This document shows positions 44,023-62,600 of a stretch of 64,000 bases of DNA, in pieces. Every line of letters starts with the position of its first letter. Within the stretch, counting starts at the first letter, position 1. The position numbers were made by a program, and so were the translations under genes. The notes beneath the pieces are model-generated. The model was given only the letters and a program-made list of their open reading frames with translations. It made no database searches and was not told the origin of the DNA. The stretch is from a virus (taxonomy: Duplodnaviria > Caudoviricetes), in the IMG/VR virus record IMGVR_UViG_3300024272_002379; one strand, given 5' to 3'.

Positions 44023-44037
44023 TTCCAATACCACCTT

Positions 44038-44342: not shown

Positions 44343-45704
44343 TTATTCCTCCTCATTGTAAATTGTTCTGATATTCGCTTTTAGCGTAGTTTCATTGATA
44401 CATAATACTTCCCATTCCATATCATATTTATCAGATAATCCGCTTAGTTTGGGAACTATTACTCTGTAAAGTCCGTACTTTTGAAGGTTATTTACTTTAG
44501 ATAAAAATTGACTCCATGACATAAGTAATGTATTTTCAAGTCGTAAATAATCTTCAAACTCTTTTGTCATGTCAATTTCCTCTCCAGTTTCTTTATCAAT
44601 ATAGGTTACTGTAAATGATAAATCTATATAATCTTTCAGGATAACACCTGGAACAGCAAACTCTTGTGTAGCTGTTTCTTGTCCTTCAGAATAGATTACC
44701 GTATACCAGTTCCAGCCTATCTCTGTTACGAAAATAGAAGATATTTGACATTTCTCATGACCAACTCTTATTCGTTTGCCGTCAGGATATATTACATATA
44801 TAACGACATCTTCTTCGTCATAAGATTTTCCAACTTCTATTTTAGCACCTTCATACCAAACATTCAATCTCAAAGAACTAACATTAGTATATGGAACAGT
44901 GATTTGTGTAATGAGATTTTGATATTGAATTTTAAACACACCATTGTTGGTATCTGTAATAACAGGAAAATCTAAGAATTCCCATTCTGTAGGAGAAAGT
45001 CTTATGATTTCTCTTGTATCTGTGGCAACTAAGAATACGCCAGTAACTAGTACTTCATCAGAGTATATTCTGCTCCCGATAGGGAGTATTTCTCCTGTAT
45101 ATTCAGCATCTAGTGCTAATAATTTTGGCAATCCGACAATGATAAAATCAACAGCGAAAACTGTATCTAGTAATAAATCCTCGTACAATAAAGTTTTTGT
45201 ATTATCACCTATTTTATACACCAAATAGTCATCATTTTTAATTTCACAATCATTTGGATTAATAATTTTTATAGAACCGTCATTCAATCTGGCTTTTATA
45301 AGTAAATCATTTTTACTGAAAGTATCTGATACAAATAAATCAGAACCAGTGTATCCTACAGTTATATCTATGATAATAGGCTCAAATGTAATGTGATGAT
45401 TCACTGCTATCTCTTGTGTAATTATACCTTTTGATGCGTCATTAATATCACGACTATGACTTCCATATAAAGTAATGACGCAAGGTGCTGTAATTGTCAA
45501 AGCAATTATTCCACTTGCGTCACTATATACTTCCGTCATATTTGTAATATCAGGTTCGCTGCCGTCATAGGTCATTGCATATTGAATAGATAAGTGATTA
45601 CCTATACATTGATTGCCATTATCATCATATCCTTTAAATATAATAGGAAAAGCTCCTAATTGCTTTGCCCATTCATTAACTCCTGGGGTAATTGATAATG
45701 CCAT
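44343..45704 (-). CDS. virion protein with Ig-like repeats
   Basis: Three Y.G..(L/I).VG..(F/Y)...D repeats like those in 19534-21264. Confidence 0.65.
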   Translation of the reverse strand: MALSITPGVNEWAKQLGAFPIIFKGYDDNGNQCIGNHLSIQYAMTYDGSEPDITNMTEVYSDASGIIALTITAPCVITLYGSHSRDINDASKGIITQEIAVNHHITFEPIIIDITVGYTGSDLFVSDTFSKNDLLIKARLNDGSIKIINPNDCEIKNDDYLVYKIGDNTKTLLYEDLLLDTVFAVDFIIVGLPKLLALDAEYTGEILPIGSRIYSDEVLVTGVFLVATDTREIIRLSPTEWEFLDFPVITDTNNGVFKIQYQNLITQITVPYTNVSSLRLNVWYEGAKIEVGKSYDEEDVVIYVIYPDGKRIRVGHEKCQISSIFVTEIGWNWYTVIYSEGQETATQEFAVPGVILKDYIDLSFTVTYIDKETGEEIDMTKEFEDYLRLENTLLMSWSQFLSKVNNLQKYGLYRVIVPKLSGLSDKYDMEWEVLCINETTLKANIRTIYNEEE

Positions 45705-46816
45705 TATTTCACCTTCTTATAATTTTTAAAACCTTGAATAGAGCCATCATATAAATGAGGAATAAAACCTGTTCCTGATACGCTTGATTCATTCTGGTCC
45801 CAGTAGTGCTCATTCCAATGAAAATGATTCCAGAATATAGGAGACTCTGAATTCAATATGTCTATATACTGCTTTAACTTTGTTTTAGGTTTTCCTTCAA
45901 TGGTAAACAGCTCGTTATACAATTTAATATCTTCACGATTATGTAGCTGATGCATTTCTAATCCGTAAACATAACTTACAGTACATTCTTTACGAATCTT
46001 TTTATCATTAAAGGCTTTAAGTAATACCGTGCCTGCACTAGTTAAGAACACTCTTGATGAGTCAATTGGTTCTCCATCAACTGTGATAGAATTTAAGACT
46101 ATCATAGCATCTTCTAATTCCAAATCTCTTGCTGGATTAGTCCAAATAAGATTTCTACGTATAGCCAATTCTCTACCAATACCATTGATTAATCCTGGTT
46201 TGCTGGCACCTGCCTTATTCGTGAATACATCCATAATACGCTTTTTATATTCGATATTAGGTTCTTCGAATAATCTAGGACAAGATACCAATGCTCCTAA
46301 TTCATCAAAGAAATTCCAAACTTGATGAGGCATTAATGGTCTGACATATTCACTGTCATCTTTGAAGATAAGTTTAATTTTACCATTGTCGTTAATAGCA
46401 TCTGCATTGAATTTTTGTCTTACATAAATGATATTGCGTTTCTCATCTACGAAATAGAATTCAAATGAATGCATATTTCGATTCTGAATATTCTGGTCTA
46501 TGCCAAAGAACTCTTTGATACTTTTGGTCCTGATAAGCTGGGCATTATTTGCAAATACAGACTTAAGTTCCGACACCTTAAGAGGCATCGGAACAATGGT
46601 CTTATAGCAAAAATCTACTTGAGATATGTCTGCTGTATTTATGTAACATTGATTATAAGCATAGTCGATTACATATCTTGCGTCGTCTAATTCAAGACCG
46701 CATATATTTAAGAATCTTGCACCAATACTATCTTCTGATTCTTTACGAATCTTAAACCAATGAGGTAGTGCATTTAATATCGCATTTGTGTGACGTGCAA
46801 AAGTTAAGTCTGCCAT
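45704..46816 (-). CDS. baseplate/tail protein (gpI-like)
   Basis: L..LP.W, H.VWN.FDE.G.L....R..E.N..YK.RI.DVF......S..GL..GI.REL pattern. Confidence 0.55.
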   Translation of the reverse strand: MADLTFARHTNAILNALPHWFKIRKESEDSIGARFLNICGLELDDARYVIDYAYNQCYINTADISQVDFCYKTIVPMPLKVSELKSVFANNAQLIRTKSIKEFFGIDQNIQNRNMHSFEFYFVDEKRNIIYVRQKFNADAINDNGKIKLIFKDDSEYVRPLMPHQVWNFFDELGALVSCPRLFEEPNIEYKKRIMDVFTNKAGASKPGLINGIGRELAIRRNLIWTNPARDLELEDAMIVLNSITVDGEPIDSSRVFLTSAGTVLLKAFNDKKIRKECTVSYVYGLEMHQLHNREDIKLYNELFTIEGKPKTKLKQYIDILNSESPIFWNHFHWNEHYWDQNESSVSGTGFIPHLYDGSIQGFKNYKKVK

Positions 46817-46826
46817 AATTTCACTC

Positions 46827-47225
46827 CTATCCGTTCCAACGAGACTTTGTTTCTCTTACATCAATATGAGTAAAAGTTGCATAAGCACCTATACCGCCTG
46901 TATTTACTAACAAAGTTTCTGCGAACTTTACAACTTCTTTTGGGGAAATTCCACTTACCACTATATCTGCCGCTGTACCGTATAAATGTTGTGATTGTGC
47001 AGCTCCACCTACTTTTTTGTTGTGACTAGGTGTACGATATGCTGAATTAATTATAACAGGTTTGCCAAAGTGTGAACGAATTTTTTGTAAGATTTCTACT
47101 AATTCTGGAGCGATAAAGATTACATCACTACCATCCTGACAAGCAAACTCTCTTACTTTAAAGTTTGTAGATACTTGTTTGTTTCCGTCTACTTTTTTTG
47201 AATAGGCATATATTACTGGTTTCAT
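46827..47225 (-). CDS. peptidase M15 (Zn D-Ala-D-Ala / L,D-peptidase family)
   Basis: NF...EFAC.DG, INSAYR...HN..VGG...SQH..G.AADI, FTHID.R. Confidence 0.92.
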   Translation of the reverse strand: MKPVIYAYSKKVDGNKQVSTNFKVREFACQDGSDVIFIAPELVEILQKIRSHFGKPVIINSAYRTPSHNKKVGGAAQSQHLYGTAADIVVSGISPKEVVKFAETLLVNTGGIGAYATFTHIDVRETKSRWNG

Positions 47226-47235
47226 AAAATACCTC

Positions 47236-47793
47236 CTAACTTTGTTTTTGAAGATTTCCATGCCATTTTCTTAGCAAATATATTCTTCTTAAAATAAGGT
47301 TTTTTCTTTCTTCTGAAAAGTAATTTGATGTATTGATTATTTCAGTAAAAACTGGAATATATTCGTCAACTGTTAAATTAAGGTATCTTAACAGTTGACC
47401 TATATATTCAATATTATTAACTTTAAATTTTACCAAGGCTGCGGCACATTCATGAGCAAGCAAATCTTCTGGAGCTAAAAAATAGAATTCGTCTTTTTTA
47501 ATAGCTCTATCTTTGTACCCTTGAGGGCCAAAGCACTTATCAACAATATCTATAGAACTAGTTTTTGTTATATTTTCTGCATCAATATCAGTAAAAATAT
47601 CAACATCATGAATATGTTTTAGTATGAAGTAATCCATGAAACTAGCACAACTTGAACCGCCTATAATAAAATCTTTTGTAGATAAATTATTAGCAATTTG
47701 GAATTCTTTTACTTTTCGCAATATAATTCTATTATTTCGATTATGTAGTTCACTATATTTATCGTAGTTTTGATACGAAAATGATATTGCCAT
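47236..47793 (-). CDS. putative polymerase-beta-superfamily nucleotidyltransferase
   Basis: hIGGS...DVDI...IDIV motif (GS, DxD and a third D). Confidence 0.55.
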   Translation of the reverse strand: MAISFSYQNYDKYSELHNRNNRIILRKVKEFQIANNLSTKDFIIGGSSCASFMDYFILKHIHDVDIFTDIDAENITKTSSIDIVDKCFGPQGYKDRAIKKDEFYFLAPEDLLAHECAAALVKFKVNNIEYIGQLLRYLNLTVDEYIPVFTEIINTSNYFSEERKNLILRRIYLLRKWHGNLQKQS

Positions 47794-47804
47794 TTTGTCT
47801 CCTT

Positions 47805-49754
47805 TTATACAAGGTTACTTGCGTCTATGGTACTTCTTACGTCTACTATTGAAACATCTTGCTTAGCACCATTCCATCCTATAATGGTCACAAAAACACT
47901 TATTCCAAGGGTTGAATCATTATTAATAATTGAACACGATATAGTACCGTTATTTAAACCACCTATATAAAAATTAACCCATTCTTGCGTGCTAGAAGCC
48001 ATGCATGTAATACTTTCGTAATTATTAAAAGATTCCCATGAACAAATTTGTCCTGCTACTTTTAATGGTGTTCCTGTGGATGTTATATCTTCAGATTGTA
48101 TTACCATCATCCAATAGTCACATTCTTTAGCTGCGTCAAATACATCTTGCATAGTAGTTGAACTTACATCATATGTTGTCTGTGTTGCTGCATCACAATT
48201 GAATTCAAATATACCATGCACAGATTTGCTAGAACTAGCCCCTGCATTATAACCGTAGTCATAACCTTCGTCATAACCTGCTTCGAATCCTCGGTCATAA
48301 ATTACTTCTTTACATTGTCCATTATCTATTTTAATTTGCGTATGGTAACCTGCTGGAATATCAAACAATAAAGGGTCTTGACCATATTCAAGTTGTTGGT
48401 CAACTACCACATATGGTTTAGAAGAATAATCTGCCATTGTACCAGTAATAGCAACGCCAGAATTATTTGTAAATGTTTTACCAGCTAAAACGTTTGCCGC
48501 TACAGCAGTACCTTTCTTTGTTTCTAAGATACCATCCTGTCTTCCTTTATCAAATATATCATCTAATCCTGCTGCAAAATATGCCATTTCCCAGTCTGTA
48601 GTTGCTTCTATATCGTAATTAGCATAGCCACCTATCATTATATTTTTTGCATCTAGTATACCATCTTGCTTTCCTTCGCTATAAGAATCATTGCAAGCAT
48701 CTGTACTATCAACCTGAATTTTTGTATGATAACCATCTGGAATGTCGATAATGTCATTTCCGCCTGTTGCTTTTACAGTTTGAACGCTTGATGAGTAATC
48801 TGTCATTGTACCAGTTACTTTAGCTCCGTCAACATAAGCTGTCTTGCCTTTTAAGATTTGAGCTGCTGTTGCTGTCCCATCTGTCTGAGAAGCCAATGTG
48901 TTAGCTGTTATTTTACCAGTACCATCATGAAATCCTTTCGGTATAGTAAATGACTCGCCACAATTTAGAGATGCTGTTTTAGAACCATTATTTGTCATTG
49001 TGCCAGTCAAACCTATAGAGGAACTATTAGTAAACGTTTTATCAGCTAATACGTTTTCAGCTACGGCATTTCCTTTTTTAGCAGCCGTAACACCAGCATT
49101 ATAGTTGTTTGCTGCTATTGCCTTAATGTTGCTTGTCATTGTTGCGAAAGTGGCATCTGCTGCTGTCGTCACACCGTTATCAGTGATGGCAGATGCAATA
49201 GACGATTTTCCATCACTGACAGATTTTTTTACATTAGTAAGTTCTGTCTGTAAAGTCTCAAATAAGATTTGTAACGCATCAATTAATGTTTTAAGAGCAA
49301 CACCTTGAGCTGCCGATAAAGGCTTTGATGATACATTTGTTGTAAGGTTGTCAATAATATCTGCCGTATTGACTTTGCCTGTAGTAATGGCATCAATGAG
49401 GTCTTTGTTTGATTTTACATAAGCAACAAGTTCACTCATTTGGTCTAGTGATTCATCATCACTATCTAGTAAGGTATTTACTCTATTAACCAATTCTGTA
49501 ATGAGCACTCGAATATCATTATGTGCCGATGCGGAAATATTATGAGATGTAATATTGTTAGAGGCAGCTCCACTTGGCTCAGCTCCTATATCAGAAGCAG
49601 TGAGTGTAATGTCCTCAGTTAATGGCTTGCCGTTAATAGTTCTTGTGGTTGGAACTTTGTCATTAACGTTATTTAATAATGCTGATACTTTGCTGTTAAT
49701 AAATGTTTTGATTTGGAGAATAGCATCTCCGAATTGCTCTTTACTTATTCCCAT
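47805..49754 (-). CDS. tail fiber protein with internal repeats
   Basis: VPTTRTINGK.L..DITL, HN....AH.DIR, IDNLT....PLSA.QG..LK; three G.A.A..VL.GKT.......TGTM repeats. Confidence 0.85.
   Translation of the reverse strand: MGISKEQFGDAILQIKTFINSKVSALLNNVNDKVPTTRTINGKPLTEDITLTASDIGAEPSGAASNNITSHNISASAHNDIRVLITELVNRVNTLLDSDDESLDQMSELVAYVKSNKDLIDAITTGKVNTADIIDNLTTNVSSKPLSAAQGVALKTLIDALQILFETLQTELTNVKKSVSDGKSSIASAITDNGVTTAADATFATMTSNIKAIAANNYNAGVTAAKKGNAVAENVLADKTFTNSSSIGLTGTMTNNGSKTASLNCGESFTIPKGFHDGTGKITANTLASQTDGTATAAQILKGKTAYVDGAKVTGTMTDYSSSVQTVKATGGNDIIDIPDGYHTKIQVDSTDACNDSYSEGKQDGILDAKNIMIGGYANYDIEATTDWEMAYFAAGLDDIFDKGRQDGILETKKGTAVAANVLAGKTFTNNSGVAITGTMADYSSKPYVVVDQQLEYGQDPLLFDIPAGYHTQIKIDNGQCKEVIYDRGFEAGYDEGYDYGYNAGASSSKSVHGIFEFNCDAATQTTYDVSSTTMQDVFDAAKECDYWMMVIQSEDITSTGTPLKVAGQICSWESFNNYESITCMASSTQEWVNFYIGGLNNGTISCSIINNDSTLGISVFVTIIGWNGAKQDVSIVDVRSTIDASNLV
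48240..49110 (-). repeat. internal tandem protein repeats in the tail fiber gene
   Basis: KKGNAVAENVLADKTFTN..TGTM / GTATAAQILKGKTAYV..TGTM / KKGTAVAANVLAGKTFTN..TGTM, each followed by IP.G(F/Y)H; also YxxG repeats. Confidence 0.8.
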
Positions 49755-51634
49755 TATTCTTCCCCTCCTAATATATCTGTAACCATATTTGATATTTCTT
49801 CATCGGTATATGAAGGTCCAGAATTAATTGTACCTTCTGCCGTTGTGCGGTATTTAATACCTACAATTTTGTAGATTTTAGCATAAGTATTTTTGTCAAT
49901 AACGACCTCAGTATCAGACGAAAAATGAAGATGTACCCAGTTTTGATTATAAGTAGAAGACATGGCATCATTACAGAAAGTAAATTCAATTTTTTTACCT
50001 TCTGTTATTTCTTCAGTAGGGAATTCGTGAAAATTCTTTGAATTGTTTTCATCATCATTCCAACAACTTCTAATTTGAATATAATCATAATTTTTAACAC
50101 TATCAGACAAAGTAGCACTACCAGTAGTAAAAGAACCCTCAAATAATACTGTTTCTTTTCTTAAACCAAATACATTCATAAAATATGTTGGTTCATATTT
50201 GATACAAGAATAAGAATGTGAAGAAGCGATATTGCCAAATAGTCTTACATCTCCTAATCCAAAATTATAATTACTTGCACCATAAGTTGTTTTAATAGCT
50301 ATTCTAAAGATACTATACGCTTCAGTGGATGTTATTTCATAATCATAATATTTAGTATGGTCATTAGGTAGGGTGCTCGTTAGTAATGTATCAAATTTAA
50401 CTCCATCTTTAGACGCTTGCAATTCAAAGTCTTTACATCTGTAGATAGAGTTATACATGTAATTTCTCAGGCTAATTTTATTTATGACTCTATCTTTACC
50501 ATCTGTAAATTGTACTTGTACATATCCAGGAGTTTCTCCTGATGGATACGAATTAGAAAGCCATCCTGTTGTATCATCTCTATCGAATACATAATATCCA
50601 TTGTACGAATGTTCGCTGTCTTGTGTGACCTTGCAAATATCACTAGAATAATTAATCATTTTTGGCACTAGACCATATACATCATTGTCTTCTTCTGTAC
50701 TATTTATTTTAGGTACAGCAAAAGTAGTTACGCCATCTCCACCAAAGTAATTTATAGAACCAGTAGAATCTGCAATACATTGTGCAAGATGTGGATAATC
50801 TGCAATGTTATATTCACTACCATCACATATTAAATAATGTTTAGGAGCTTTAGTTCCCATATAAGATATAATATGACCTACTGGTGTATCTTCTAAACCT
50901 TGTGTTGTGTTAATATGCTCTACTGGGTCTATAGTCGTTACACGCCCTATTTCTTCCACAATAAAATAATTACCTTCAGTAGAGTATATTCTTTGTTTGC
51001 CTTCTTGAAACGTTACTTTTATTTGTATTTCGCAATCGTTTTCTGGAATGTAAATACCATTACCGTTTGTATTTGATGCTGTAGTGTCATAACTAGCTGC
51101 CGATTTGATAAAGGTAATTATTTGTTTATTATTAGTTACGTCAAAAATACTAAAACCACAATATCCTTTAGTGGCAGTGTATATATCAGCGGAAATTTTA
51201 TATGTTTTGCCAGCTTTTAATGTAATTGAGTAATTCGTTTCATTGGTTTTCATATTGCCATTGACTTTAGTAAATGGTAAAACATAACCAACGCTTAAGT
51301 CAGCGTTTTCAGTATTTGACAACATTAAATAGCAATAATCTAATTCAGTATTTAAATATTTTTGACTTCTGGAAATTGAATTAGTAATAGTTTCTAATTG
51401 CTGTATAATTTCTGTTTTATCTTCTACATATAAAGTTCCATCTTCCTGTTGTTTAATAGCATTCCCTTCAAGGTTTGAAAGGTTAACACCGTTAAATTCT
51501 TTAAGTTCTCCATTATCAGACAACTTAATAGAGTTACAATGCTTACAAATATACAAGTAGTCGTATCCAGCATTTTCTTTTTCCCTATAGGATTGAAAAT
51601 GCTCTTCTGAATTAATCTCTATAATTTTTAACAT
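49754..51634 (-). CDS. tail fiber protein with tail-collar and discoidin (F5/8) domains
   Basis: PVG.II.Y.G..AP..YL.CDG...Y..L.....FGGDG.TTFAVP collar motif; FD....T.W...KDFELQAS.DG discoidin motif. Confidence 0.85.
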   Translation of the reverse strand: MLKIIEINSEEHFQSYREKENAGYDYLYICKHCNSIKLSDNGELKEFNGVNLSNLEGNAIKQQEDGTLYVEDKTEIIQQLETITNSISRSQKYLNTELDYCYLMLSNTENADLSVGYVLPFTKVNGNMKTNETNYSITLKAGKTYKISADIYTATKGYCGFSIFDVTNNKQIITFIKSAASYDTTASNTNGNGIYIPENDCEIQIKVTFQEGKQRIYSTEGNYFIVEEIGRVTTIDPVEHINTTQGLEDTPVGHIISYMGTKAPKHYLICDGSEYNIADYPHLAQCIADSTGSINYFGGDGVTTFAVPKINSTEEDNDVYGLVPKMINYSSDICKVTQDSEHSYNGYYVFDRDDTTGWLSNSYPSGETPGYVQVQFTDGKDRVINKISLRNYMYNSIYRCKDFELQASKDGVKFDTLLTSTLPNDHTKYYDYEITSTEAYSIFRIAIKTTYGASNYNFGLGDVRLFGNIASSHSYSCIKYEPTYFMNVFGLRKETVLFEGSFTTGSATLSDSVKNYDYIQIRSCWNDDENNSKNFHEFPTEEITEGKKIEFTFCNDAMSSTYNQNWVHLHFSSDTEVVIDKNTYAKIYKIVGIKYRTTAEGTINSGPSYTDEEISNMVTDILGGEE

Positions 51635-51645
51635 GACTGCCTCCT

Positions 51646-52209
51646 TTATTGTTCTGCATCATTAGATATCAGACAATGTTTTTGTATCAATTTATGATTT
51701 TTAATAGCATTCAATACAGTAGATTTTATTGTTTCAGATATATGAACTAATGGTCCTAATACTTGAAATTCAAAAGAAGCATTACCCGATTCTTGTGTTA
51801 GCATAATTCTTTTTATTTTAATAGGTTGTTCAGAAGACCATCCTATTTTGTTTTTCTTCCAGCTTAAGCCATTTGAATAATCTGAAATATAGTTTAAAGT
51901 TACATTAGGAAACTCATTTAGATTGGAGCTTAATTCTAATGAGTCATCTTCTGAATAATAAACAGTTGTTGTAGTATAAAGATTCCCCCAATGTTGAGTA
52001 GTATAGTCTATTATTTCGTTTATTAAATGTGGAGAGTTAAACACTATTAGAGCTCTTGTTCCACCTAACCAATTATATCCCTTACCGTCTCTAAGAGCGT
52101 TATTAATAAGTTCATTATCCACTAAACTTTCGGGTTTGCATCCATCTTTGTAACTATCTGCGGTTATACTATATAAATCTGTTAAACAAAAATTAACTTT
52201 TTCATTCAT
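51646..52209 (-). CDS. discoidin-like adhesin module with shared C-terminal helix
   Basis: Beta-rich head, then ETIKSTVLNAIKNHKLIQKH. Confidence 0.6.
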   Translation of the reverse strand: MNEKVNFCLTDLYSITADSYKDGCKPESLVDNELINNALRDGKGYNWLGGTRALIVFNSPHLINEIIDYTTQHWGNLYTTTTVYYSEDDSLELSSNLNEFPNVTLNYISDYSNGLSWKKNKIGWSSEQPIKIKRIMLTQESGNASFEFQVLGPLVHISETIKSTVLNAIKNHKLIQKHCLISNDAEQ

Positions 52210-52252
52210 TATTAGTCACCTCATAAAAATAATGATATATATTTTTATATTG

Positions 52253-53056
52253 CTACAGCTTTTGAGTTAATTTATGAGAAAGTATTACGTTTTCCAGTAA
52301 TGTTACTCTTGTGATAAGACCTACACCACCAGGAACTGGCGTAATAAAGGAGCATAAATCTTTTACATTATCGTAATCAACATCTCCGCACATTTTACCG
52401 TCTTCATCTTGATTAATGCCAACGTCTACAATAATAGCCCCTTCTTTAATCATGTCTTTTGTAATGAACTTTGGTTTTCCTACTGCTGATATAATTATAT
52501 CAGCTTTTCTCAAAATATTCTCTAAATTTTGTGTATAACTATTACAACATGTAACTGTTGCGTTTGTTTTCTCTATTATGAGATTAACCATTGGCTGCCC
52601 GACGATTTTACTTCGTCCTAGTACAACAACATTTTTACCAGTCCAATATGTAACTTCACTAAGAAGATTATAAACACCTAATGGAGTACAAGGTGTAAAT
52701 TTAGATGTAACTTTAAAACCGTCTACATCTTTGTCGTCATCAATTGCTGCTTGTACTTTTTCTACAGAAATATGCTTTGGTAATGGAAGTTGTACGATAA
52801 CCCCATCACATTTTTTGTTAGCATTTTCGATAATCTTTATTAATGTATCTTCTTCAATATCTTCTTCTACTTTAAATAAAGTTGGTTTAATTCCTACTTC
52901 TTCACAATCTTTTATTTTACCAGCGACGTATTTATTAGAAGCAAAATTATCACCAACTTGTATAATGCATAAACTAGGATTTAGCTTATGATTCTGTATA
53001 GTTTTCATAATAGCATGTTTTCTTTGTGCTACAAATTCTTTACAATAATTACTCAA
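52253..53056 (-). CDS. folD: bifunctional methylene-THF dehydrogenase/cyclohydrolase
   Basis: AS..YV..K, GVIVQLPLP, KDVDG, PCTP.G, GRS.IVG.P, DVGIN, GDVD, TPVPGGVG; TTG start with GGAGG RBS. Confidence 0.96.
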   Translation of the reverse strand: MSNYCKEFVAQRKHAIMKTIQNHKLNPSLCIIQVGDNFASNKYVAGKIKDCEEVGIKPTLFKVEEDIEEDTLIKIIENANKKCDGVIVQLPLPKHISVEKVQAAIDDDKDVDGFKVTSKFTPCTPLGVYNLLSEVTYWTGKNVVVLGRSKIVGQPMVNLIIEKTNATVTCCNSYTQNLENILRKADIIISAVGKPKFITKDMIKEGAIIVDVGINQDEDGKMCGDVDYDNVKDLCSFITPVPGGVGLITRVTLLENVILSHKLTQKL

Positions 53057-53059
53057 TTT

Positions 53060-53578
53060 CTATTCCTCCGTATGTGGTACTACGTATTTCATTAATTCAT
53101 GATTTAGTATTGCGTCTTTAACTGCATCCTTTAATGAAGTATTTCCATACATTTCTAATTCTACAACTGTCCATGGATAATCACCATTGATTCCACTAAC
53201 ATTTTCTCTTAACTGTAATCCCCAGTATTCATGTGCTCCATTATCTTCCAATTGTATTTCTGTAAAACCACATGGTAAATTAGTTACGTATTTTGCATCA
53301 ATCCAATTTATACCGTCATCTGAATAAATTACATATACATTTGTTCCGTATTCTGCTATTTCGTTACCACTGCCTTGGGTTAAATACATTTTTAAAATTC
53401 TTTCTGGTTTTGAAAAATGATAAGCAATATAAGGTTTGTTGCTACCTGCAAAACTATGAGATGCATAACCTTTTGATGTGGAACCATCAAAAGCATTGTT
53501 TGGTCCAAATTTTTCTATATTGCCAGATTCATGAAAACTGTTTGTAATTGCCTCTCCATTTATACAAAGATTTTTCAT
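53060..53578 (-). CDS. F5/8 discoidin-domain protein with shared C-terminal helix
   Basis: P.NAFDG, YSDDGINW, VVELEMYG; tail LKDAVKDAILNHELMKYV. Confidence 0.75.
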   Translation of the reverse strand: MKNLCINGEAITNSFHESGNIEKFGPNNAFDGSTSKGYASHSFAGSNKPYIAYHFSKPERILKMYLTQGSGNEIAEYGTNVYVIYSDDGINWIDAKYVTNLPCGFTEIQLEDNGAHEYWGLQLRENVSGINGDYPWTVVELEMYGNTSLKDAVKDAILNHELMKYVVPHTEE

Positions 53579-53588
53579 ATTATCCCCT

Positions 53589-54161
53589 CTATTCTAATGC
53601 TGCTGTAGCAGCTTCATATACTGTATTATATATTCTTGATTTTGTCGATGTTGATTCTTCTTCTATGGTTTCAAAAGGCATGACATGTTTTTGTATCAAT
53701 TCATGATTAAGAATAGCATCTTTAACGTTTTCCTTTATCATCTTACTTTCTGTTTGTACTTCTTCTAAATACCATTCAATATCTCCTCTGTACTTTCCTG
53801 TATGAGAAAAAGTATAAGTACCAGGTTCTAAACCTTCTAGCCATAATTCATAGTCACCACTATTGTTAGGGTTTTTTAAAGTATGTTGTGTTTTATATGT
53901 ATTTGGCGTTATATTTAACGAATTATTATGCCCGTTATTTGGTAGAGTTTTTCTCCATATATTGCATTTTTTGTTAAATGTAATAGTACAGTAATCACCA
54001 TTATAGTTCCAGTCAAAGCTATGTCTCCAGTTTGAAGGGGCTTCAATACCATCAAATAGATAAATAGGATTACAGCTATTATGACTTCTATATGTTACAA
54101 TCTCATAGTCTGTCATCTCTTTACCAAGTTTTTCTACATTAGGTTTAGATGTTCCTGCCAT
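53589..54161 (-). CDS. adhesin-like module protein, paralog of 56241-57077
   Basis: MAGTSKPN start, LFDG....NW, R.D.EW.LE; IKENVKDAILNHELIQKH motif and YEAATAALE tail. Confidence 0.65.
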   Translation of the reverse strand: MAGTSKPNVEKLGKEMTDYEIVTYRSHNSCNPIYLFDGIEAPSNWRHSFDWNYNGDYCTITFNKKCNIWRKTLPNNGHNNSLNITPNTYKTQHTLKNPNNSGDYELWLEGLEPGTYTFSHTGKYRGDIEWYLEEVQTESKMIKENVKDAILNHELIQKHVMPFETIEEESTSTKSRIYNTVYEAATAALE

Positions 54162-54922
54162 ATCTGTTCCTCCTCATATGATACTATATATTTAAACATT
54201 TCATGGTTCTTAATAGCATTTAAAATAGATGCTTTAATTGTTTCAGAAGGACCTGTTATATTTAATAACAACTTATAATAATCAGGATAATCTTTTTTTA
54301 AATTATCATAATATTGATAACCTAATCCTTCGGCATTCATATTCATTGAATTATTAGCACCATCAATAGTAATACTACCAAAATTAACATTATAAGTACA
54401 ATAATTCAAATGTTGAGTACCCAATTCTAAACCTCTTCCATTAAAAGTACAGTTAGTATAATATAATTTAGTATCTGGATAGTGATTATTAGCACCATAA
54501 ACAAAAATACTACCAGGGAAATAACCGTTTGTCTGGAATAAACAATTATAAAATCGTTTATAGTAAATTTGATTATTTGCATCTAAATATAATAATGCTC
54601 TTATGTCTCCATCAAAACTTGTATGAGGTTGTAGTATTAAATTTATAAACATTATATTATTTGTACTTGTTGAACATGCTTCGCATTTTTGAGCACTAAT
54701 AGTAACTAATGTTTGTCCAATAATAGTAACGTCATATCCTATATTCATTGGTTCTGCTAAACTATATAAAAGATATGGAGTTTCACTTTCTTTTAATATA
54801 ATAACACCAGCTTCTTTGCTTGCTTTTAAAAGATTAAGTGCTGTTGCAATATCAGCTACTGGGGTATCTTTTGTCCCAGTGCTTGAATTGTTTCCGTTTA
54901 TATTATCAACATAATAGTTCAT
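54134..54922 (-). CDS. DUF1565/pectin-lyase-like beta-helix protein with shared C-terminal helix
   Basis: YYVD...GN...GT...P...I..A N-terminal motif, NC.F rungs; tail ETIKASILNAIKNHEMFKYIV. Confidence 0.7.
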   Translation of the reverse strand: MNYYVDNINGNNSSTGTKDTPVADIATALNLLKASKEAGVIILKESETPYLLYSLAEPMNIGYDVTIIGQTLVTISAQKCEACSTSTNNIMFINLILQPHTSFDGDIRALLYLDANNQIYYKRFYNCLFQTNGYFPGSIFVYGANNHYPDTKLYYTNCTFNGRGLELGTQHLNYCTYNVNFGSITIDGANNSMNMNAEGLGYQYYDNLKKDYPDYYKLLLNITGPSETIKASILNAIKNHEMFKYIVSYEEEQIWQEHLNLM

Positions 54923-54940
54923 ATTTTGACCCCTCCTTTT

Positions 54941-56227
54941 TTATGGCTCTAAATACAAGTAATACCAGTAAGTTGTATTACCTTCAGGATTAAGTAATAT
55001 ATAATATTTGTCATTGTATTCTGAAACATCTATTTCATCTTCATAGTCGCCAGATGGAGTAAAGGATTCTAATAAAATTTCAGTACCATCTTTATCAACT
55101 AAGAATATTTTACCAGGCCATTTATTCCTTTCCGTTTGAGAAAAATGGAATTTTAAAGTATTATAAAGCGATAAATCTATCATTTCTTTTGTCTGATAAT
55201 AAGCACAACAACGTTCAAGGCTTGTATAGTAATTATAGACATAATCTTTATGAACGGATACACCTGCATTCTCTTGACTGATATCATCCATTGTTGTTTC
55301 AAACACTTTTGTTTTATCGCCTAATGGAATTATATAATATGGTTCGATTCCAAAATCTATTACCGAAACATATTTATTAAATAATTCATTTGTCTGAAAA
55401 ACATTTAGAACTCCTTTTTTAAGTTTTTCTGATGGGTCAATTCCAATAAATTTATTATCTATGTAGACCTTACCTGAAGATATTTTAGAAGTATAAGACA
55501 ATAAATTATTTTTAGAAGTATCCATGGATTCGTCAATAATACAGTCTTGTTCTACTGCATACCCACCACTTGAAAATTCATTATGAACGATTTGTTTATT
55601 ACAAACACAATTGCTTAGTGTTATTCTTCCTGAATAATTAACTCCACGCATTTCGCCATAAACATGGAAAACACAATTTTCAATAGTTGTCTCAACATAA
55701 TTATTATCATATATTAACGCATGTTTAGGTCTTGAGAAAGGATTATAAAATTCAAATATACAGTTTTTGCAAACCCAACCATATCTTGGTTCTACAAAAA
55801 ATATATCACTTAAAGTTCCGCCCCATGAAGTATCAACGACTTCTTTCATGACTATTATTTTAAAATGTACATTAATCAATTTACCATTCATATGGTAGAA
55901 GTCATATCCTCTTCCTCCGTCTCCAGTGTGTGATATGTTAATTTTAGTATTGCGAATATCACTACAAATCAATATATCTTTAGCACATGTAAAAATAGGA
56001 ATTGTATAACTAGCACTTTCTCGGTATACATGTTCATTTGTATAATTGTACTCGCCTTTCAAAAAATAAATAGCATCACCATCAGTAGCCTTATTGTATG
56101 CTGCAAGATAAGAAAAAAATGGGTTATCAATTGAGCCATCGCCAGTTGCGTCGTTTCCATCTGGCGAGCAGTAATATATGTTATTTACTGTGTAATTCGT
56201 ATTGTTGATAGTTATTGTATGTGCCAT
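54941..56227 (-). CDS. DUF1565/beta-helix protein with internal shared helix and extra C-terminal domain
   Basis: YY.SP.GND.TGDGS..NPF.S...A......GD.I....G.Y, NC.F rungs; internal EKLKKGVLNVFQTNELFNKYV. Confidence 0.7.
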   Translation of the reverse strand: MAHTITINNTNYTVNNIYYCSPDGNDATGDGSIDNPFFSYLAAYNKATDGDAIYFLKGEYNYTNEHVYRESASYTIPIFTCAKDILICSDIRNTKINISHTGDGGRGYDFYHMNGKLINVHFKIIVMKEVVDTSWGGTLSDIFFVEPRYGWVCKNCIFEFYNPFSRPKHALIYDNNYVETTIENCVFHVYGEMRGVNYSGRITLSNCVCNKQIVHNEFSSGGYAVEQDCIIDESMDTSKNNLLSYTSKISSGKVYIDNKFIGIDPSEKLKKGVLNVFQTNELFNKYVSVIDFGIEPYYIIPLGDKTKVFETTMDDISQENAGVSVHKDYVYNYYTSLERCCAYYQTKEMIDLSLYNTLKFHFSQTERNKWPGKIFLVDKDGTEILLESFTPSGDYEDEIDVSEYNDKYYILLNPEGNTTYWYYLYLEP

Positions 56228-56240
56228 ATTTTCACTCCTC

Positions 56241-57077
56241 CTATTCTAAAGCTGTTGTAGCAGCTTCGTATATTGATTTATATACCATATTACTTATTGG
56301 AGCAGGAGTATCAGCATTATCCGTTTCTTCATCTCCGCCGATTATATATTTATCTACAACTTCTTTAAGTAAATTGTAGACTTCTTGTTTGATTTTAACT
56401 GCTACAATGTTGCCATCAGTATCTGTAATGGGTTCAAAATCTACAAACATTGGGGTTAGTGTGATATTTTCTGTTACCATATCTCCATTTTTGAACAATG
56501 TTCCATCAGGTTTTTGATACCCAATACAAACTTTATTAACCTGACATGCTGGAAAATCATTAACACTTATTGGAGTATTTTCAGAGTAACCCTTAGTGTA
56601 AATTTCATTATTATTTTGGTCACAACATGTTATTCGATAAGAACCATCTGTTCTTTCTAAAAACCATTCAGTATCCAGTCTAAGAGCACTTGTTGCTTTA
56701 AATTTATATATTCCAGCTTCTTTAATGGTCATACATTTTTGCCATTCATATTTATTTGCCAAATTATATTGCTCAATTTGACTTGTAATGTCTGTTTCTG
56801 TTCCATCATTTTCTATTTTATATATTTGAAATTTACCAGTATAACCACTATAACTTTTAGAACTATGTCTCCATATTATACATGGCGTGTCAAATTTAAT
56901 AGTTACATATTTAGTTGAGTCACCCCAATAACATACATCTGACGTATTCCAGTTACTTGCATGTATAACTCCATCAAATAATCCTTTTGCAGAGCCTGTA
57001 ACAGAACTTGATATTATTTGACAAGTAGTTTCCATTCCCGTTATTAAAGAATCGTTTGGTTTAGCTGTTCCTGCCAT
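56241..57077 (-). CDS. adhesin-like module protein with InlB-B/Flg_new-like repeat, paralog of 53589-54161
   Basis: MAGTAKPN start, LFDG....NW, R.D.EW.LE, VTENITL.P.F; YEAATTALE tail. Confidence 0.65.
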   Translation of the reverse strand: MAGTAKPNDSLITGMETTCQIISSSVTGSAKGLFDGVIHASNWNTSDVCYWGDSTKYVTIKFDTPCIIWRHSSKSYSGYTGKFQIYKIENDGTETDITSQIEQYNLANKYEWQKCMTIKEAGIYKFKATSALRLDTEWFLERTDGSYRITCCDQNNNEIYTKGYSENTPISVNDFPACQVNKVCIGYQKPDGTLFKNGDMVTENITLTPMFVDFEPITDTDGNIVAVKIKQEVYNLLKEVVDKYIIGGDEETDNADTPAPISNMVYKSIYEAATTALE

Positions 57078-57087
57078 AAAATACCTC

Positions 57088-57906
57088 CTATAAAATTACC
57101 ACATTATCTATGTCTCTTGATACGATAAATCTTTCAAACCATCTGCATGATTGATTTACATACAAAGCTTTTTCTCCGTTAATCTTAAATGAGATATTTG
57201 ATTCTTGTAAGATATTTTCAGATACATTCATGATTACTTGGGTAATTTTATCTATGATAATGTCTTCGCCTATACTTAAGTTAGATAAGTAATCAGTTAG
57301 AGCAAGCTGTACATCATATCTGATTTCTTGCTTTTCGATATCTGATAATGTGTCCTTAAGGAATAATTTCTGCTTAATTGAAACATATGTAAGAGTAGGA
57401 CTAACAACATTGTATCTAATACCATATCCATGTACATTTAAAAGCTTTGCTTTTACGTTTTCCAGAATACCTTCTGAGGTTACATCTTTATCGGATAATA
57501 CGATAACAGTAAAAGAACCAGCTCCCATAGAATAAGGTTTAAGAATAACATCATTAACGCCTTCAACAGTTAACGCTGTTAATCGAATTGCTGTTTCATT
57601 TGATGTAGCAAGAGTAAGGCACTGATTTACAATTCTGTATCTAAAATTATCATCCGTTTCATTTGTTAATCTAAAGCATTGTACCAGTACACCAATAGCA
57701 TCTAATGCTCCGCCATCTGCTGTAGTTACGAATGCCCTAATGTGATTAACAGTTAATGTATTGTACAAATTAGCAATGTTCTTATTTACAATATTCATAA
57801 ACAATTTTGCTATTGCACCTGGAGATGTAGAAAAACCAACGGCTGCTAAGTCGCTGGTAGATTCTACACTTAATTCTTCAAATGTTTTTGTATTTAATAC
57901 TATCAT
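57088..57906 (-). CDS. baseplate J-like wedge protein
   Basis: TA.G.ALD.IG, ETDD.FRYRI, V.GV.DV...P...GAGS..V.V. Confidence 0.85.
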   Translation of the reverse strand: MIVLNTKTFEELSVESTSDLAAVGFSTSPGAIAKLFMNIVNKNIANLYNTLTVNHIRAFVTTADGGALDAIGVLVQCFRLTNETDDNFRYRIVNQCLTLATSNETAIRLTALTVEGVNDVILKPYSMGAGSFTVIVLSDKDVTSEGILENVKAKLLNVHGYGIRYNVVSPTLTYVSIKQKLFLKDTLSDIEKQEIRYDVQLALTDYLSNLSIGEDIIIDKITQVIMNVSENILQESNISFKINGEKALYVNQSCRWFERFIVSRDIDNVVIL

Positions 57907-58430
57907 TTTTCCTCACTCCCTGTAATGATATGTTGAACCAATTCATGGTTTAAAATAGCATCTGTAATTAATGTTTGTATGGTTTTCGATATTTGCATTG
58001 TTGATGCATCAGTATTTACGTATACCATTTTATACGTACCCTGTATAGATGCGTCAAGATTTAAAAAAGCAATTTGTTTATATGTGCCATCATATGTATG
58101 TGACATATAAACAGTGACTTGCTCTCTTCCATAAGATGTGTTTTCCCATGTTCTTATACCTATTTTTGTAAGTTTAGTAATGTCTGTAATGTCAAGTTCA
58201 GCTATAAAATAAGTTGTTTCTGGGCAGCCCGTCCACCATCTATTGGTAATGGTATTATTTGTAGAAAATATTTGACTCGTTGTTGGTGTATCTCTTACAA
58301 AACCATCATAAACGATACTAAATTTAGTATAAGGTATAATTGCTCCATCTTGGTCAAATACATTTATTCGACCAGCTCCTAAGCATCCATCTATCCTTTT
58401 GTATAAAAATTTTAAAAATACACTTTTCAT
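57903..58430 (-). CDS. discoidin-like module protein with shared C-terminal helix
   Basis: AAGGAGGT RBS before ATG 58430; tail KTIQTLITDAILNHELVQHII. Confidence 0.6.
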   Translation of the reverse strand: MKSVFLKFLYKRIDGCLGAGRINVFDQDGAIIPYTKFSIVYDGFVRDTPTTSQIFSTNNTITNRWWTGCPETTYFIAELDITDITKLTKIGIRTWENTSYGREQVTVYMSHTYDGTYKQIAFLNLDASIQGTYKMVYVNTDASTMQISKTIQTLITDAILNHELVQHIITGSEEK

Positions 58431-58434
58431 ATTC

Positions 58435-58872
58435 TTACCTCCTTGGCTCCCATCCGAACTTAATAAATACACCTTTTACCAAGTCAAGTTCTGCCGTAAT
58501 TTCGTGAGAATACGTATCTTCTGTTTCGGATTGGTATATCTTTAAAAATATACTGTAGGTAATATTAGTATTGTTTTTGATTTCTGTCTTAATAAATATA
58601 TCGTTATCTGTCCATAAATCATCTACGGTTAGTACATCAATGATTTTCAATTTGCCATATTCAGCTATCTCTTCTGTACATGGTTTGCCAATAATCTCTT
58701 CTAAGTCTGCACCAATTTCATCAACAAACCATGTTTTAGATATAGATTTTATACGGTTATACGCTAATTGAATACGCAAATCATTACCTTTATTAGTCTG
58801 TATGTCATGCGTATTGCTGTCAACTATGATTTCTCCCTCTGGAGTAAATCCAAAATCGAATCCTTCTGCCAT
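58435..58872 (-). CDS. baseplate wedge protein (gp25/gpW-like)
   Basis: D..F...G.I......D......Q....RI.....W......GADL...IG; located between the spike-like and baseplate J genes. Confidence 0.65.
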   Translation of the reverse strand: MAEGFDFGFTPEGEIIVDSNTHDIQTNKGNDLRIQLAYNRIKSISKTWFVDEIGADLEEIIGKPCTEEIAEYGKLKIIDVLTVDDLWTDNDIFIKTEIKNNTNITYSIFLKIYQSETEDTYSHEITAELDLVKGVFIKFGWEPRR

Positions 58873-58879
58873 AATTATA

Positions 58880-59590
58880 TCACTCCTTATTTGTTGTGTC
58901 ATTGATTATTTTACTTAAGTCAATTGTTTGATTATTAACTTGCAATGTTCCATATAAGCTAACTGTTTTGGTTTCAGGAGATATTCTAATACCTACACTA
59001 TTGGCTACAAAAATATCAATATCTCCATTTTCCTTAAGTTTTATTGTAGACTTAGTACTTAGATTAGTAATTCCCTGTTCTGCTTCTTTATATTTATCAA
59101 GAGTACTTAATACCTCATGTATCACTTCAGAAGAATCTATTTGACTATAGTCACCCAAATCATTGATATATTTCCCATAGTTAACATTTTCTTCTTCAAG
59201 CCAATTGCTTGTCATGGAAGTTATAGACCCTGGCTTTTCAATAGATAAAATACCAGAATCTATGATGTAAGCTCCTTGGTCTGTACATGTTTTTAATGCA
59301 TAGTTGTTTGATGTTAACCCAGTAATTATTGGATTATATATGTTATTCTTGATGAAGGTGATAGCACAGGTCTGGCCTGGATATATGCCAGCCCCTGTTA
59401 ATCCACCCAATGTATTGGCAATACTTACATTATCTCTGTACAAAAACCCTTCGCCATTTGGATTTAGATAACGTATCTTTGCAGTGTTAAGAACCATATT
59501 ATATTCAATGATAGTTGCAGTAGTATCATTGGATTGCTGTCTATTATTTTCTTCTATTTGTTGTTTTAATCTGTCTCTAACGATACCCAT
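58880..59590 (-). CDS. baseplate spike / gpV-like protein
   Basis: N-terminal OB-like region, C-terminal beta-strand repeats (STIKLKENGDIDI); follows the hub/lysin gene. Confidence 0.55.
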   Translation of the reverse strand: MGIVRDRLKQQIEENNRQQSNDTTATIIEYNMVLNTAKIRYLNPNGEGFLYRDNVSIANTLGGLTGAGIYPGQTCAITFIKNNIYNPIITGLTSNNYALKTCTDQGAYIIDSGILSIEKPGSITSMTSNWLEEENVNYGKYINDLGDYSQIDSSEVIHEVLSTLDKYKEAEQGITNLSTKSTIKLKENGDIDIFVANSVGIRISPETKTVSLYGTLQVNNQTIDLSKIINDTTNKE

Positions 59591-59607: not shown

Positions 59608-62600
59608 TTAATCAAAATCTGGATTGTCTGTTGCGTTACCTTTAATGTTTTCTTCTGTGGCTGTTGCATTGTTATTCATGAGTAATATCTTTTCTCCACC
59701 TTTAACTCCAGCAACAAATGGATAGTTTTCCCACCATAACGGAAGTAGCACGCATACATTTTTATTATCTATCCATTCAAGAAAATCGGAAATTAAAATA
59801 TCAACCAAGGTCCATGCAATAAATCCGACAACCGCACCAACTCCGCCAGTTACCGCCCCTGCTATAGTTGTCGTTGCAGCTTTAATACCGTTATAGATTT
59901 GCTTTACACCTTTAGCTCCCTTAAGGGCGTCCTTGAATGTATCTGCAATTTCCCCAGCTTTGGCTAAGTTTTTTAAGTTTTTAGCTACTGTAAATGCCGT
60001 TTTGCGATAGTAAGCTAAAAATACCATATTCTCCAGTGACAACGCCCCATTAATTATTGAATGCTTAAGTACAGTAGAATTCATTTTATTGTTAATTATT
60101 TCAAAGTTACTAAATATAGTTAGATACTGTTCATAGTTGTTTCTTATTTGTCTACGAGTTTCGATATAACTTGAGAAACAATTCAACAGCATTAATAGGT
60201 TTTGACATGTAATTATCATACCAGATGTTTCTTGTGTATCAAATCCTATCATACCTGGAGTGACTGAAGTAGTGAATCCTGTATTAACATTAAAGCTGTG
60301 AACTACTTCTCGAACTAAAGCAACTCCATAAAGCTGAGCAAAGCTATCAGAAATCATAATATAATCATGGGGTTTAATTCCTGGCATACCCATCAAGATT
60401 ATTTGTCCTTGATATTGTTGTTGCCATCCATGTAGTAAGTTACTTATACCAACACGTTTTGCTGCTTCTTCACCAATATTATAACCCAAGAACTCTAATA
60501 TTTTATCAGGACCTAAAGCATCTTGACTAATTGGAGTGTCTAGGATGGTTGTTTTCTGATAAGCAAAATCAATAGTATCGTCACTATGCAATACCTTTGT
60601 TGATACTGGACTATCTCCTAAAGTATACATTACTTTGATATTTGTATTGCTAAACTTTGATGTAACTCTTATTTGATTATCAATAATATTACTCATTGAA
60701 TCTAATATGTGTGCTTGAGTTGATGCTTTACATTCTTCGTATACTTTTTTGTTAAGATAGTCATATCTGTATTTTTCCATCCAGAATGGTAATCCAAAAT
60801 ATATTCTGGAGTCAAATTGATGATATGATGGTTTTACAATATACTCAGGAACTTGCTGTGTACATACTTGGAATACATCCCATGGAGTCATATTGTATTT
60901 ATTAAATACAAAATTCTTTTCCCAATCTGCACCTAAGAAATCAGTATATATATAATGTTCTCTGCTGTAATCAGCTTTGTAAACATTTTTTAAAATATCA
61001 TACTGTTCTTGATAACCGTTCCACAAATCCGCTATTGTTATTGTATTGCCTTCAGATAAGAAATCTGTAAGTGTCAATCCAATTAAGGCACCTACGCCAA
61101 GTCCTATTAGCGTACCAGCTCCAGGAATCATACTACCAATTGCTGCTCCTATTGCTGCATACCCAATGGCACCAGTTGCGGCTCCTACTAAGATACTCAT
61201 TGCATTTTCATTAAAGTATAAACCAAAATGCTCAATACTATATTTAGAGCCTTCAAAGGTGTCTTTGTGAAGATAATTAAACCAAGATTGTCTAGCACAC
61301 ATTATATTTGAAATAATATTACTTGACTCCTGTTCTTCGAATAATCCGAAAAGACCAAGGAATCCATCGTTCGTGTCTTTTTCCGCTGCTGATGTAATAT
61401 GCTGAATTAGCTCATGCCCGTCAGAAGTAACTACGATACTTATTTGGTCGCCTAACGCCACATCACTGATATGACCATTCATTACTGGTGCTAAAGATAA
61501 TGGGTCAGAACCATAGCCCATTCTTAAATGAATTCTTGCTCCTTCTCTTAATTTAGCATGGTCATATATTACTTGATTTAATTTAATAAGTTTATCTGTC
61601 AATTTAGGACCAAAGCCTAACAACATACCAGTATGCTTATAAAATAATCTTGTAAGGTTTCCATATCCTTCATCGTTAGCAATACTGTAATTACTCAATC
61701 CACCCTGAGTTCTATCTAAGTTATGGTAGGAATTTGTAATAACAATAGTTGCAGTTTCAGTAGGCATGTCATTTGTAGCATGTACTGCAATGTCTACAAT
61801 AGAACGATGAATGTAATAATTTGTCCAAAGCTTTCTGCCATCATACCATTGAGCATTGTCATCTAGTATACAGAATAAATACGTAGGAAAAGCTCTTACT
61901 AAACGCCCTCTTCCTGAATACTGATACTCATCACAAAATGACGTATTAAATATATTTAATCCGCTATTTAAATGCTCTTTAGCATTTGTTTTAGCTGTAC
62001 CATTTTTCCAGAAGTTCCATCCTTCATCATAAACGATTGCATCGGTTTCTACTAATACTGGTTCGGCAAATCTTCCAGCGTCTTCTAATGTTACGGTATC
62101 ATAACTAACAGTATTCTCAGTTACGTTAGAGTTGCTAGATGCATCGCCTGTGCTAGATGAATCTACTATGTCATATTTAACGTTAGACCCTTGAGATGCA
62201 CTGCCCCAAAATGTATGACTACCTACTTCTCCTATTCTTGTATAGTTATCACTACGATTTTTATATGTAGCGTTTGTATCACTAGGAGTCAGGAAATACC
62301 ATGCTTGATAATTAGGCCACATCTTATCATTTTCACAAAATACAGCCTTTACATTATCTTCCACAGTAGAATTTAATTCTCCACTATAAGGAGGTTCAAA
62401 TTGACCTGACGCATTTAATATATTTGACAGACCTCCAAATTTTTTATCTTTATGTGTAAGTCTATCATATATTACTTGAGCAACTGCTTTTTCTGTGAAA
62501 GAAGGTTCTCCTTGTGTTTCTGCCATAACTACTCTACAAATTGATTCGAATTCCGCAGTTGTAAGAGTATAAGAATTATTGCTCACTCCAGAAACAAATG

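Follow-up and report, generated by a model that had tools for sequence, protein, structure and literature searches.

How has a phage come to hold, among its tail-fiber and baseplate genes, a series of small adhesin-like genes that differ in their heads and share one short segment near their ends? The question is raised by a 64,000-nucleotide (nt) stretch of the IMG/VR virus record IMGVR_UViG_3300024272_002379 (Duplodnaviria; Caudoviricetes), hereafter the window, which holds the baseplate genes of a jumbo myovirus of ~210 kb that has not been cultured (the database lists the window's proteins on contigs of up to 213 kb). A first-pass annotation, made from the sequence alone, had proposed that seven genes here carry one short helical motif serving as a C-terminal, dockerin-like tag for interchangeable heads. 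Our analyses strongly support a plug-in architecture, in which one short C-terminal helix, the tag, is joined to many different heads. The tag is modular and usually terminal, it is restricted to this gene cluster and to one phage clade, and the genes that carry it turn over rapidly. In all, the proposal stood as regards a modular C-terminal helical tag, which we find on at least 18 head groups in the baseplate cluster of one clade, and the likeness to dockerins proved to be an analogy only.

To find the tag, we used a profile hidden Markov model (HMM) trained on four copies from other phages only (three from contig L006, one from L001), which was run on the 450 six-frame open reading frames (ORFs) of the window with 20 residue shuffles as control. 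Exactly six window ORFs match, at 24-43 bits (E 6.5e-13 to 6.3e-7): g187 (43.1 bits), g262 (42.7), g190 (39.1), g189 (28.2), g172 (27.7) and g428 (23.9). The next match reaches 7.8 bits and the best of the 20 shuffles 7.6 bits, which places the motif far above the shuffled controls. Six of the seven proposed genes therefore carry it, including g428, where a weaker internal copy had been noticed (E 6.3e-7). The seventh, g278, does not: its tag-like segment scores 2.7 bits, which is not significant, and belongs to a different module. The positions originally listed mark the stop codons at which the genes end; those of the motif itself are listed in Table 1.

The g278 protein is a paralog of g190 (BLASTP E 3e-14 over the head and 5e-4 over the C-terminal part, the latter in register with the g190 tag). 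Its C-terminal module of ~90 residues (residues 153-244; 56337-56618) is shared with a 329-amino-acid (aa) beta-helix protein of contig L014 (L014:2839-3114; 40% identity, E 1e-20), ends in a KIKQxVYxLLK helix and is present also in a 253-aa protein of L007. The C-terminal part of g278 is a module related to the tag, or an alternative to it, and does not simply repeat it. In both g190 and g278, the tag is followed by a second terminal helix, of the YEAATxALE type, which also ends the protein P0035, with its other type of discoidin head, and is found in diverged form in P0037. Its occurrence on two head types indicates that this helix is modular too, and it may be a second kind of plug.

In an exhaustive hmmsearch, 39 of 1.84 billion cluster representatives matched at E<=1e-3, and about 36 of these matches are true; the three false ones are two repeat proteins and one protein with an FMN-binding repeat. 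A second profile search, seeded by words and run on 5.8 billion proteins, returned this phage group alone. The true matches are mostly proteins of ~155-330 aa, and the tag lies within 3 residues of the C-terminus in 33 of the 40 tag proteins examined (the window's seven included), which bears out the C-terminal position first suggested. Pfam, PHROGs and PDB sequences hold no match to it (a PDB profile search gave nothing below E 0.1), in line with the initial remark that the motif is not a recognised named family.

The tag is a module of ~25-30 residues with the consensus SExIKxSVKNxILN[HN][EK]L[IF]Q[KE]Y[CV]IPYEEE. An N-capped amphipathic helix leads into a short hydrophobic strand, after which the protein usually ends. 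Information content does not exceed 1 bit in the linker and reaches 3.3 bits at the capping Ser; from a conserved Val onward, it lies at 1.8-4.6 bits for ~18 consecutive positions, one invariant Asn included. Conserved polar residues lie on all faces of the helix, and the conservation is contiguous, not heptad-periodic. This is expected of a segment buried in a specific site, not of a generic coiled coil, and it bears on the possibility that the tag is an oligomerisation module, that is, a short coiled coil or helical bundle, homo- or heteromeric, that makes monomeric lectin heads multivalent, with virion attachment, if any, by other means. Such a role would suit a segment that is predicted to be helical immediately after the last strand of the head, is amphipathic with Asn or His at a core-like position, and tolerates an internal position (g428); among the top Foldseek matches of the g190 model are muskelin, with its discoidin domain and LisH dimerisation helix, and SUN domains, which stand beside trimeric coiled coils. 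We nevertheless consider oligomerisation unlikely as the function of the tag, since the conserved faces include positions that are variable in ordinary coiled coils, the heads share nothing else and hence have no alternative common anchor, and one complete phage (G001) has a single carrier, so that carriers need not form hetero-oligomers with one another.

With the tag removed, the 40 carriers fall into 18 BLASTP head groups, which leaves the tag as the only element they share. N-termini differ between head groups and are common only within the MAGTxKPN family. Pfam assigns F5_F8_type_C to 11 of the 40 carriers (E<=0.01), Laminin_G_3 to two, and Big_2 and CE2_N to one each; by kind, the heads are discoidin/CBM32, LamG, right-handed beta-helix, Ig-like or unknown. 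The statement that the heads differ thus holds at the level of sequence and for at least three folds, with the qualification that many heads belong to one galactose-binding-like superfamily. Judged by family membership, the heads would be glycan-binding or glycan-cutting.

The assignments of individual heads vary in strength. The discoidin-like head described at first is borne out for g172, which matches PF00754 at 36.2 bits (gathering cut-off 28.2); its AlphaFold2 (AF2) model, built from a 6-row alignment, is poor (predicted local distance difference test score, pLDDT, 61.8) and usable solely for the helix at residues 148-158. The MAGTxKPN-family heads have no Pfam match, and their likeness to discoidin/CBM32 is one of fold alone. 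The AF2 model of g190 (pLDDT 73.9) has a beta-sandwich at residues 15-134 and helices at 138-151 (the tag), 154-159 and 173-189, and its Foldseek matches to discoidin/CBM32 have template-modelling (TM) scores of 0.4-0.5 to the target. For g262, the match to DUF1565 in Pfam (PF07602) reaches only E 0.23 and 11.2 bits, below the cut-off of 20.3. In the ESM Atlas, this head resembles a right-handed beta-helix (DUF1565, pectate-lyase-like) by features (0.92) and by structure (TM 0.60-0.68 to Beta_helix/DUF1565 clusters; Atlas model pLDDT 0.62). The N-terminal part of g428 aligns with the g262 family; g428 has no match in Pfam. The g189 protein is probably 175 aa long, from the ATG at 58430; its ortholog P0006 begins at the internal ATG. 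Read as a GTG-started ORF of 189 aa, g189 overlaps the gp25-like gene by 38 nt (58430-58472), and with the ATG start there is no overlap.

Is the motif conserved as a peptide or as nucleic acid? The DNA of the tag copies is 46-58% identical, with third codon positions no better conserved than first and second. Differing synonymous codons point to constraint on the peptide, and thus to a protein-level motif, not a DNA repeat. The end of the tag is a different matter. Where the next gene overlaps or begins at most 3 nt further on (gaps of -4 to 3 nt), its Shine-Dalgarno sequence is contained in the final Gly/Glu codons of the gene before it (Table 1); the same is seen in tagless genes, such as those of the 626-aa and 453-aa proteins. 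In g262, the Glu codons stand 7-8 nt before the start of g190 and the frame simply continues. Embedded ribosome-binding sites explain why acidic C-termini are frequent here, tagless proteins included. Translational coupling thus accounts, at least in part, for the terminal acidic residues of the tag, which we do not count towards a binding motif.

Of 15 tag pairs, five have identical stretches of 10-17 nt in common, slightly above the control, whose 99th percentile is 10. The longest, of 17 nt, lies between the tags of g187 (51688-51711) and g190 (53697-53720), where 23 of 24 nt are identical. The ortholog of g187, P0007, directly follows the baseplate J-like gene (J) in L006; the tags of these orthologous heads diverge at the far end, where that of g187 is closer to the g190 tag than to its ortholog's. 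As read from these alignments, this hints at recombination inside the g187/g190 tag. The exact runs and the embedded Shine-Dalgarno codons would also be compatible with conservation that serves DNA or mRNA alone, as a recombination hotspot for cassettes or for translational coupling, the peptide itself having no role. We find this hardly credible, given the weak nucleotide identity across the helix and the third codon positions; moreover, the amino-acid profile holds over ~36 clusters that are <50% identical overall, and the internal copy in g428 is not beside a gene start.

To place the tag in other phages, we examined ten related contigs that bear it, including L001, L006, L007, L008, L009, L010, L012, L013 and L014 (L009, a fragment of 917 nt, holds the gene that is also seen in L008). 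In all ten, the carriers lie in the same baseplate cluster, beside the 272-aa J, gp25-like or 366-370-aa gene, and they occupy three variable slots: between the spike and gp25-like genes, between the gp25-like gene and J, and between J and the 370-aa gene. The location among tail-fiber and baseplate genes described for the window thus extends to the clade, where carriers are confined to this cluster. Their number varies from none in the complete genome G004 (210 kb) and one in the complete G001 (208 kb) to three in L006, four and a degenerate one in L007, and six in the window; L012, whose baseplate-cluster proteins closely resemble those of G004, has one in the ~16 kb examined of its 22-kb contig. 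Directly after J, L006 has a 22-codon stump (L006:9877-10000) with its own ribosome-binding site and a start like that of the MAGTxKPN family, which looks like the remnant of a deleted carrier gene. Copy-number shifts, this stump and the differing tags of orthologs together indicate rapid gain, loss and rearrangement of carriers, against a background of core baseplate genes that are 59-92% identical. Mean tag identity is 0.43 for pairs from one genome and 0.41 for pairs from different genomes (permutation p 0.26), which gives no signal of within-genome homogenisation by co-evolution or gene conversion. Tags that are equally alike within and between genomes fit a partner conserved throughout the clade.

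That partner might be non-structural, with the tag acting as a signal recognised by a protease, by a chaperone of assembly, or by a route of export or packaging. Like a targeting signal, the tag is a short and highly conserved peptide placed at the end of diverse cargo, and it often has an acidic tail. We judge this distinctly improbable: carrier genes occur in the baseplate cluster only, no signal peptide, sortase motif or known secretion motif is seen in the window translations, and in the loci read, the tag is not accompanied by any gene that would be a candidate partner. The acidic tail, for its part, is accounted for by the ribosome-binding sites embedded in it.

What the tag most simply suggests is a common attachment peg, as it is the sole shared element, is carried only among baseplate genes and is conserved on all faces. 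We give about even chances to the module being a shared attachment tag that fixes the heads to a conserved site on the tail tip or baseplate. Small accessory genes would have entered the cluster behind the spike gene, behind the gp25-like gene and in the interval from the J-like to the 370-aa gene, each protein consisting of a single lectin- or carbohydrate-active-type head and one common module of ~25-30 residues. The acceptor for the tag would be one conserved site, either on the tail tip or baseplate itself or on a protein attached to them, and any head acquiring the tag would be displayed on the virion. The phage could then gain, lose and swap glycan-binding or glycan-cutting heads with the core baseplate unchanged. 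The tag proteins would be virion components, held by the tag.

Several points weigh against attachment. The presence of tag proteins in the virion is suggested only indirectly, by synteny with gp151-gp160 of Bacillus phage 0305phi8-36, and that phage, the only cultured relative found, has no tag. We identified no acceptor and found no repeated cohesin-like one, and five to seven proteins sharing one type of site would need many sites or mixed occupancy. In fibres and spikes, the virion anchor is as a rule N-terminal. An internal tag (g428) and tags that precede a further helix (g190, P0035, P0037) show that a free C-terminus is not required. Finally, the acidic end overlaps the next gene's ribosome-binding site, so that part of the apparent conservation may not be at the protein level. 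As to the acceptor, we can speculate that the VWA domain of a conserved 2118-aa protein of the cluster is a candidate acceptor or scaffold, since VWA domains (VWA/MIDAS sites) often bind acidic ligands.

A broader form of the attachment hypothesis is natural plug-and-display: one C-terminal helix of ~25 residues would suffice to load any small folded domain onto an acceptor of a contractile-tail baseplate, and a jumbo-phage clade would carry mixed, exchangeable lectins and glycan-active enzymes in this way. We advance this tentatively, as possible rather than probable. The YEAATxALE helix and the ~90-residue module may be further, orthogonal plugs.

Table 1. Coordinates of tag-carrying genes, tags and neighbouring features in the window
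Feature	Coordinates	Strand	Description
1447-aa hub/lysin protein	59608-63951	-	first in transcription order
236-aa spike-like protein		-	between hub/lysin and gp25-like genes
gp25-like small baseplate protein	58435..58902	-	155-aa ORF; phrog_25235 E 3.8e-23
g189	57903..58430	-	unknown beta-rich head, C-terminal tag; between gp25-like and J genes
Tag of g189	57921-57989	-	
Baseplate J-like wedge protein	57088..57906	-	272 aa; Pfam Baseplate_J (PF04865) E 8.9e-15
g278	56241..57077	-	MAGTxKPN-family head, ~90-aa module with degenerate tag-like helix (56337-56402), second terminal helix (56244-56294)
g428	54941..56227	-	beta-helix-like head, internal tag without acidic end, extra ~140-aa C-terminal domain
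Tag of g428, internal	55364-55432	-	
g262	54134..54922	-	right-handed beta-helix-like head, tag; frame runs 28 nt into g190
Tag of g262	54179-54247	-	
g190	53589..54161	-	MAGTxKPN-family discoidin-like head, tag, then terminal helix YEAATxALE (53592-53639)
Tag of g190	53676-53747	-	
g172	53060..53578	-	F5/8 type C (discoidin) head, tag
Tag of g172	53075-53143	-	
folD (methylene-THF dehydrogenase/cyclohydrolase)	52253..53056	-	Pfam THF_DHG_CYH_C E 3e-58, THF_DHG_CYH E 2e-28
g187	51646..52209	-	unknown, probably discoidin-like head, tag
Tag of g187	51667-51738	-	
Tagless island genes	46827..51634	-	626-aa fibre, 649-aa fibre, 185-aa and 144-aa proteins
Conserved 370-aa baseplate protein	45704..46816	-	closes variable island; downstream of island always
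Shine-Dalgarno in terminal Gly/Glu codons	57903-57920		g189 to J
Shine-Dalgarno in terminal Gly/Glu codons	53060-53074		g172 to folD
Shine-Dalgarno in terminal Gly/Glu codons	49754-49770		
Shine-Dalgarno in terminal Gly/Glu codons	44343-44360		

All genes of the region are on the minus strand. The conserved anchor of the cluster is the 272-aa J-like gene, whose product belongs to Baseplate_J (55.1 bits, gathering cut-off 21.1) and is 59-92% identical in relatives. By sequence comparison, Bacillus phage 0305phi8-36 is a distant relative and the closest cultured phage: its gp151 is 37.5% identical to the J-like protein, its gp150 is 37% identical to the gp25-like protein, which is kept in all relatives, and its gene order (gpV-like, gp25-like, J) matches that of the window. 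The products of the syntenic cluster from J onward, gp151-gp160, are annotated as virion proteins by mass spectrometry. In a DNA search of isolated phages with the whole region, folD alone was matched.

Downstream of J, the variable island spans ~10 kb in the order g278, g428, g262, g190, g172, folD, g187, two fibres and the 185-aa and 144-aa genes, followed by conserved genes of 370, 453, 100, 2118 and 1192 aa. The 370-aa protein is 64-88% identical in relatives and has no match in a Pfam scan; its position suggests that it may be a second wedge subunit. Pfam assigns Collar and F5/8 type C domains to the 626-aa fibre and fibre repeats to the 649-aa fibre. The 144-aa gene (46827-47793 region, after the 185-aa gene) is directly upstream of the 370-aa gene, as it is in L007, where the homolog (L007:15917-16312) carries Peptidase_M15_2/3. 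Through this homolog, we read the 144-aa protein as a putative M15-type peptidase, which may be a virion-associated wall hydrolase. The 2118-aa protein (37678-44034) has its VWA domain at residues 383-505 and a weak fn3 match, and the VWA domain is present also in the L006 and L007 homologs. A conserved 164-aa protein is encoded inside the island between J and the 370-aa gene in L005, L007, L010, L012 and L014 and ~13 kb downstream here (32372-32866), which indicates that the cluster has been rearranged.

An intact folD inside a baseplate accessory island is an observation in its own right; in L006, it is at the end of the island (L006:11883-12674), distant from other nucleotide-metabolism genes. 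We rejected FolD as a tag carrier: the tag HMM gives 3.6 bits at an N-terminal helix and -1.3 bits at the C-terminus, neither significant and both attributable to chance, and the L006 FolD has no C-terminal likeness to the tag. Also rejected was a homology between the 453/178-aa conserved baseplate protein and the MAGTxKPN heads (BLASTP E 0.002-0.01, hhalign probability 1.8%).

Should the tag prove sufficient by itself for docking, it would account for the way in which large phages that infect Gram-positive gut bacteria vary their recognition of host surfaces with no rebuilding of the baseplate. Foreign domains could then be displayed on a phage tail by means of a natural handle of very small size, and phages would have their own parallel to cohesin-dockerin, with a far shorter tag. 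If it is only an oligomerisation helix, it is a modest addition to phage adhesin architecture. The ~36 natural tag variants, the at least 18 head groups and the close relatives with and without carriers provide a clean test set.

How does this arrangement compare with known systems? Branched receptor-binding-protein (RBP) systems with conserved anchors include the CBA120 tailspikes, G7C gp63.1/gp66 and Klebsiella phage K64-1. As in those, one phage here has several glycan-directed heads, a conserved attachment part is combined with variable distal parts, and heads are gained and lost. Branched RBPs are large trimeric spikes that bind each other in a fixed hierarchy through folded N-terminal anchors, which run to tens or hundreds of residues, whereas here a C-terminal helix of ~25 residues is found on single-domain proteins of 160-260 aa, with no hierarchy visible. 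With the shared element C-terminal in most carriers, the tag does not belong to the N-terminal gp10-like or XD-type RBP anchors.

The cellulosome offers a formal parallel, since cohesin-dockerin pairing likewise puts one short, often C-terminal, tag on many catalytic and binding modules. A dockerin is a duplicated calcium-binding F-hand domain of ~70 residues with two ~22-residue repeats (PF00404). The tag, in contrast, is a single helix with no calcium-binding loops, no Asp-rich loop and no Pfam family; Pfam, PF00404 included, is silent on the tag region of all 40 carriers. It is in this sense that the term dockerin-like did not hold beyond analogy.

We know of no common short tag on accessory modules of the BppA, Dit or Tal type. 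Accessory baseplate proteins of Gram-positive phages (Tuc2009 BppA; carbohydrate-binding modules in evolved Dit/Tal; PMC4742702, PMC7533335) resemble the carriers as extra modules of the carbohydrate-binding type that are dispensable and variable between relatives; those modules are instead inserted in, or bound through, larger siphophage structural proteins. Decoration proteins such as T4 Hoc also present binding domains outward and are held on the virion via their C-terminal part, which in Hoc is a folded domain on capsid hexamers encoded among head genes, and here is one helix encoded in a baseplate cluster. Muskelin, with its discoidin-LisH arrangement, and the T4 fibritin foldon likewise place a short terminal element after a beta-sandwich or fibre, where it drives self-association; for muskelin, the top Foldseek match of the g190 model, the TM score of 0.37-0.39 is driven by the discoidin sandwich, and there is no sequence similarity. 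Altogether, a conserved anchor with a variable head is the known logic of phage RBPs and of the cellulosome. What differs here is an anchor that is a helix of ~25 residues, sits at the C-terminus of very small single-domain proteins, and is joined to at least 18 head groups within one clade.

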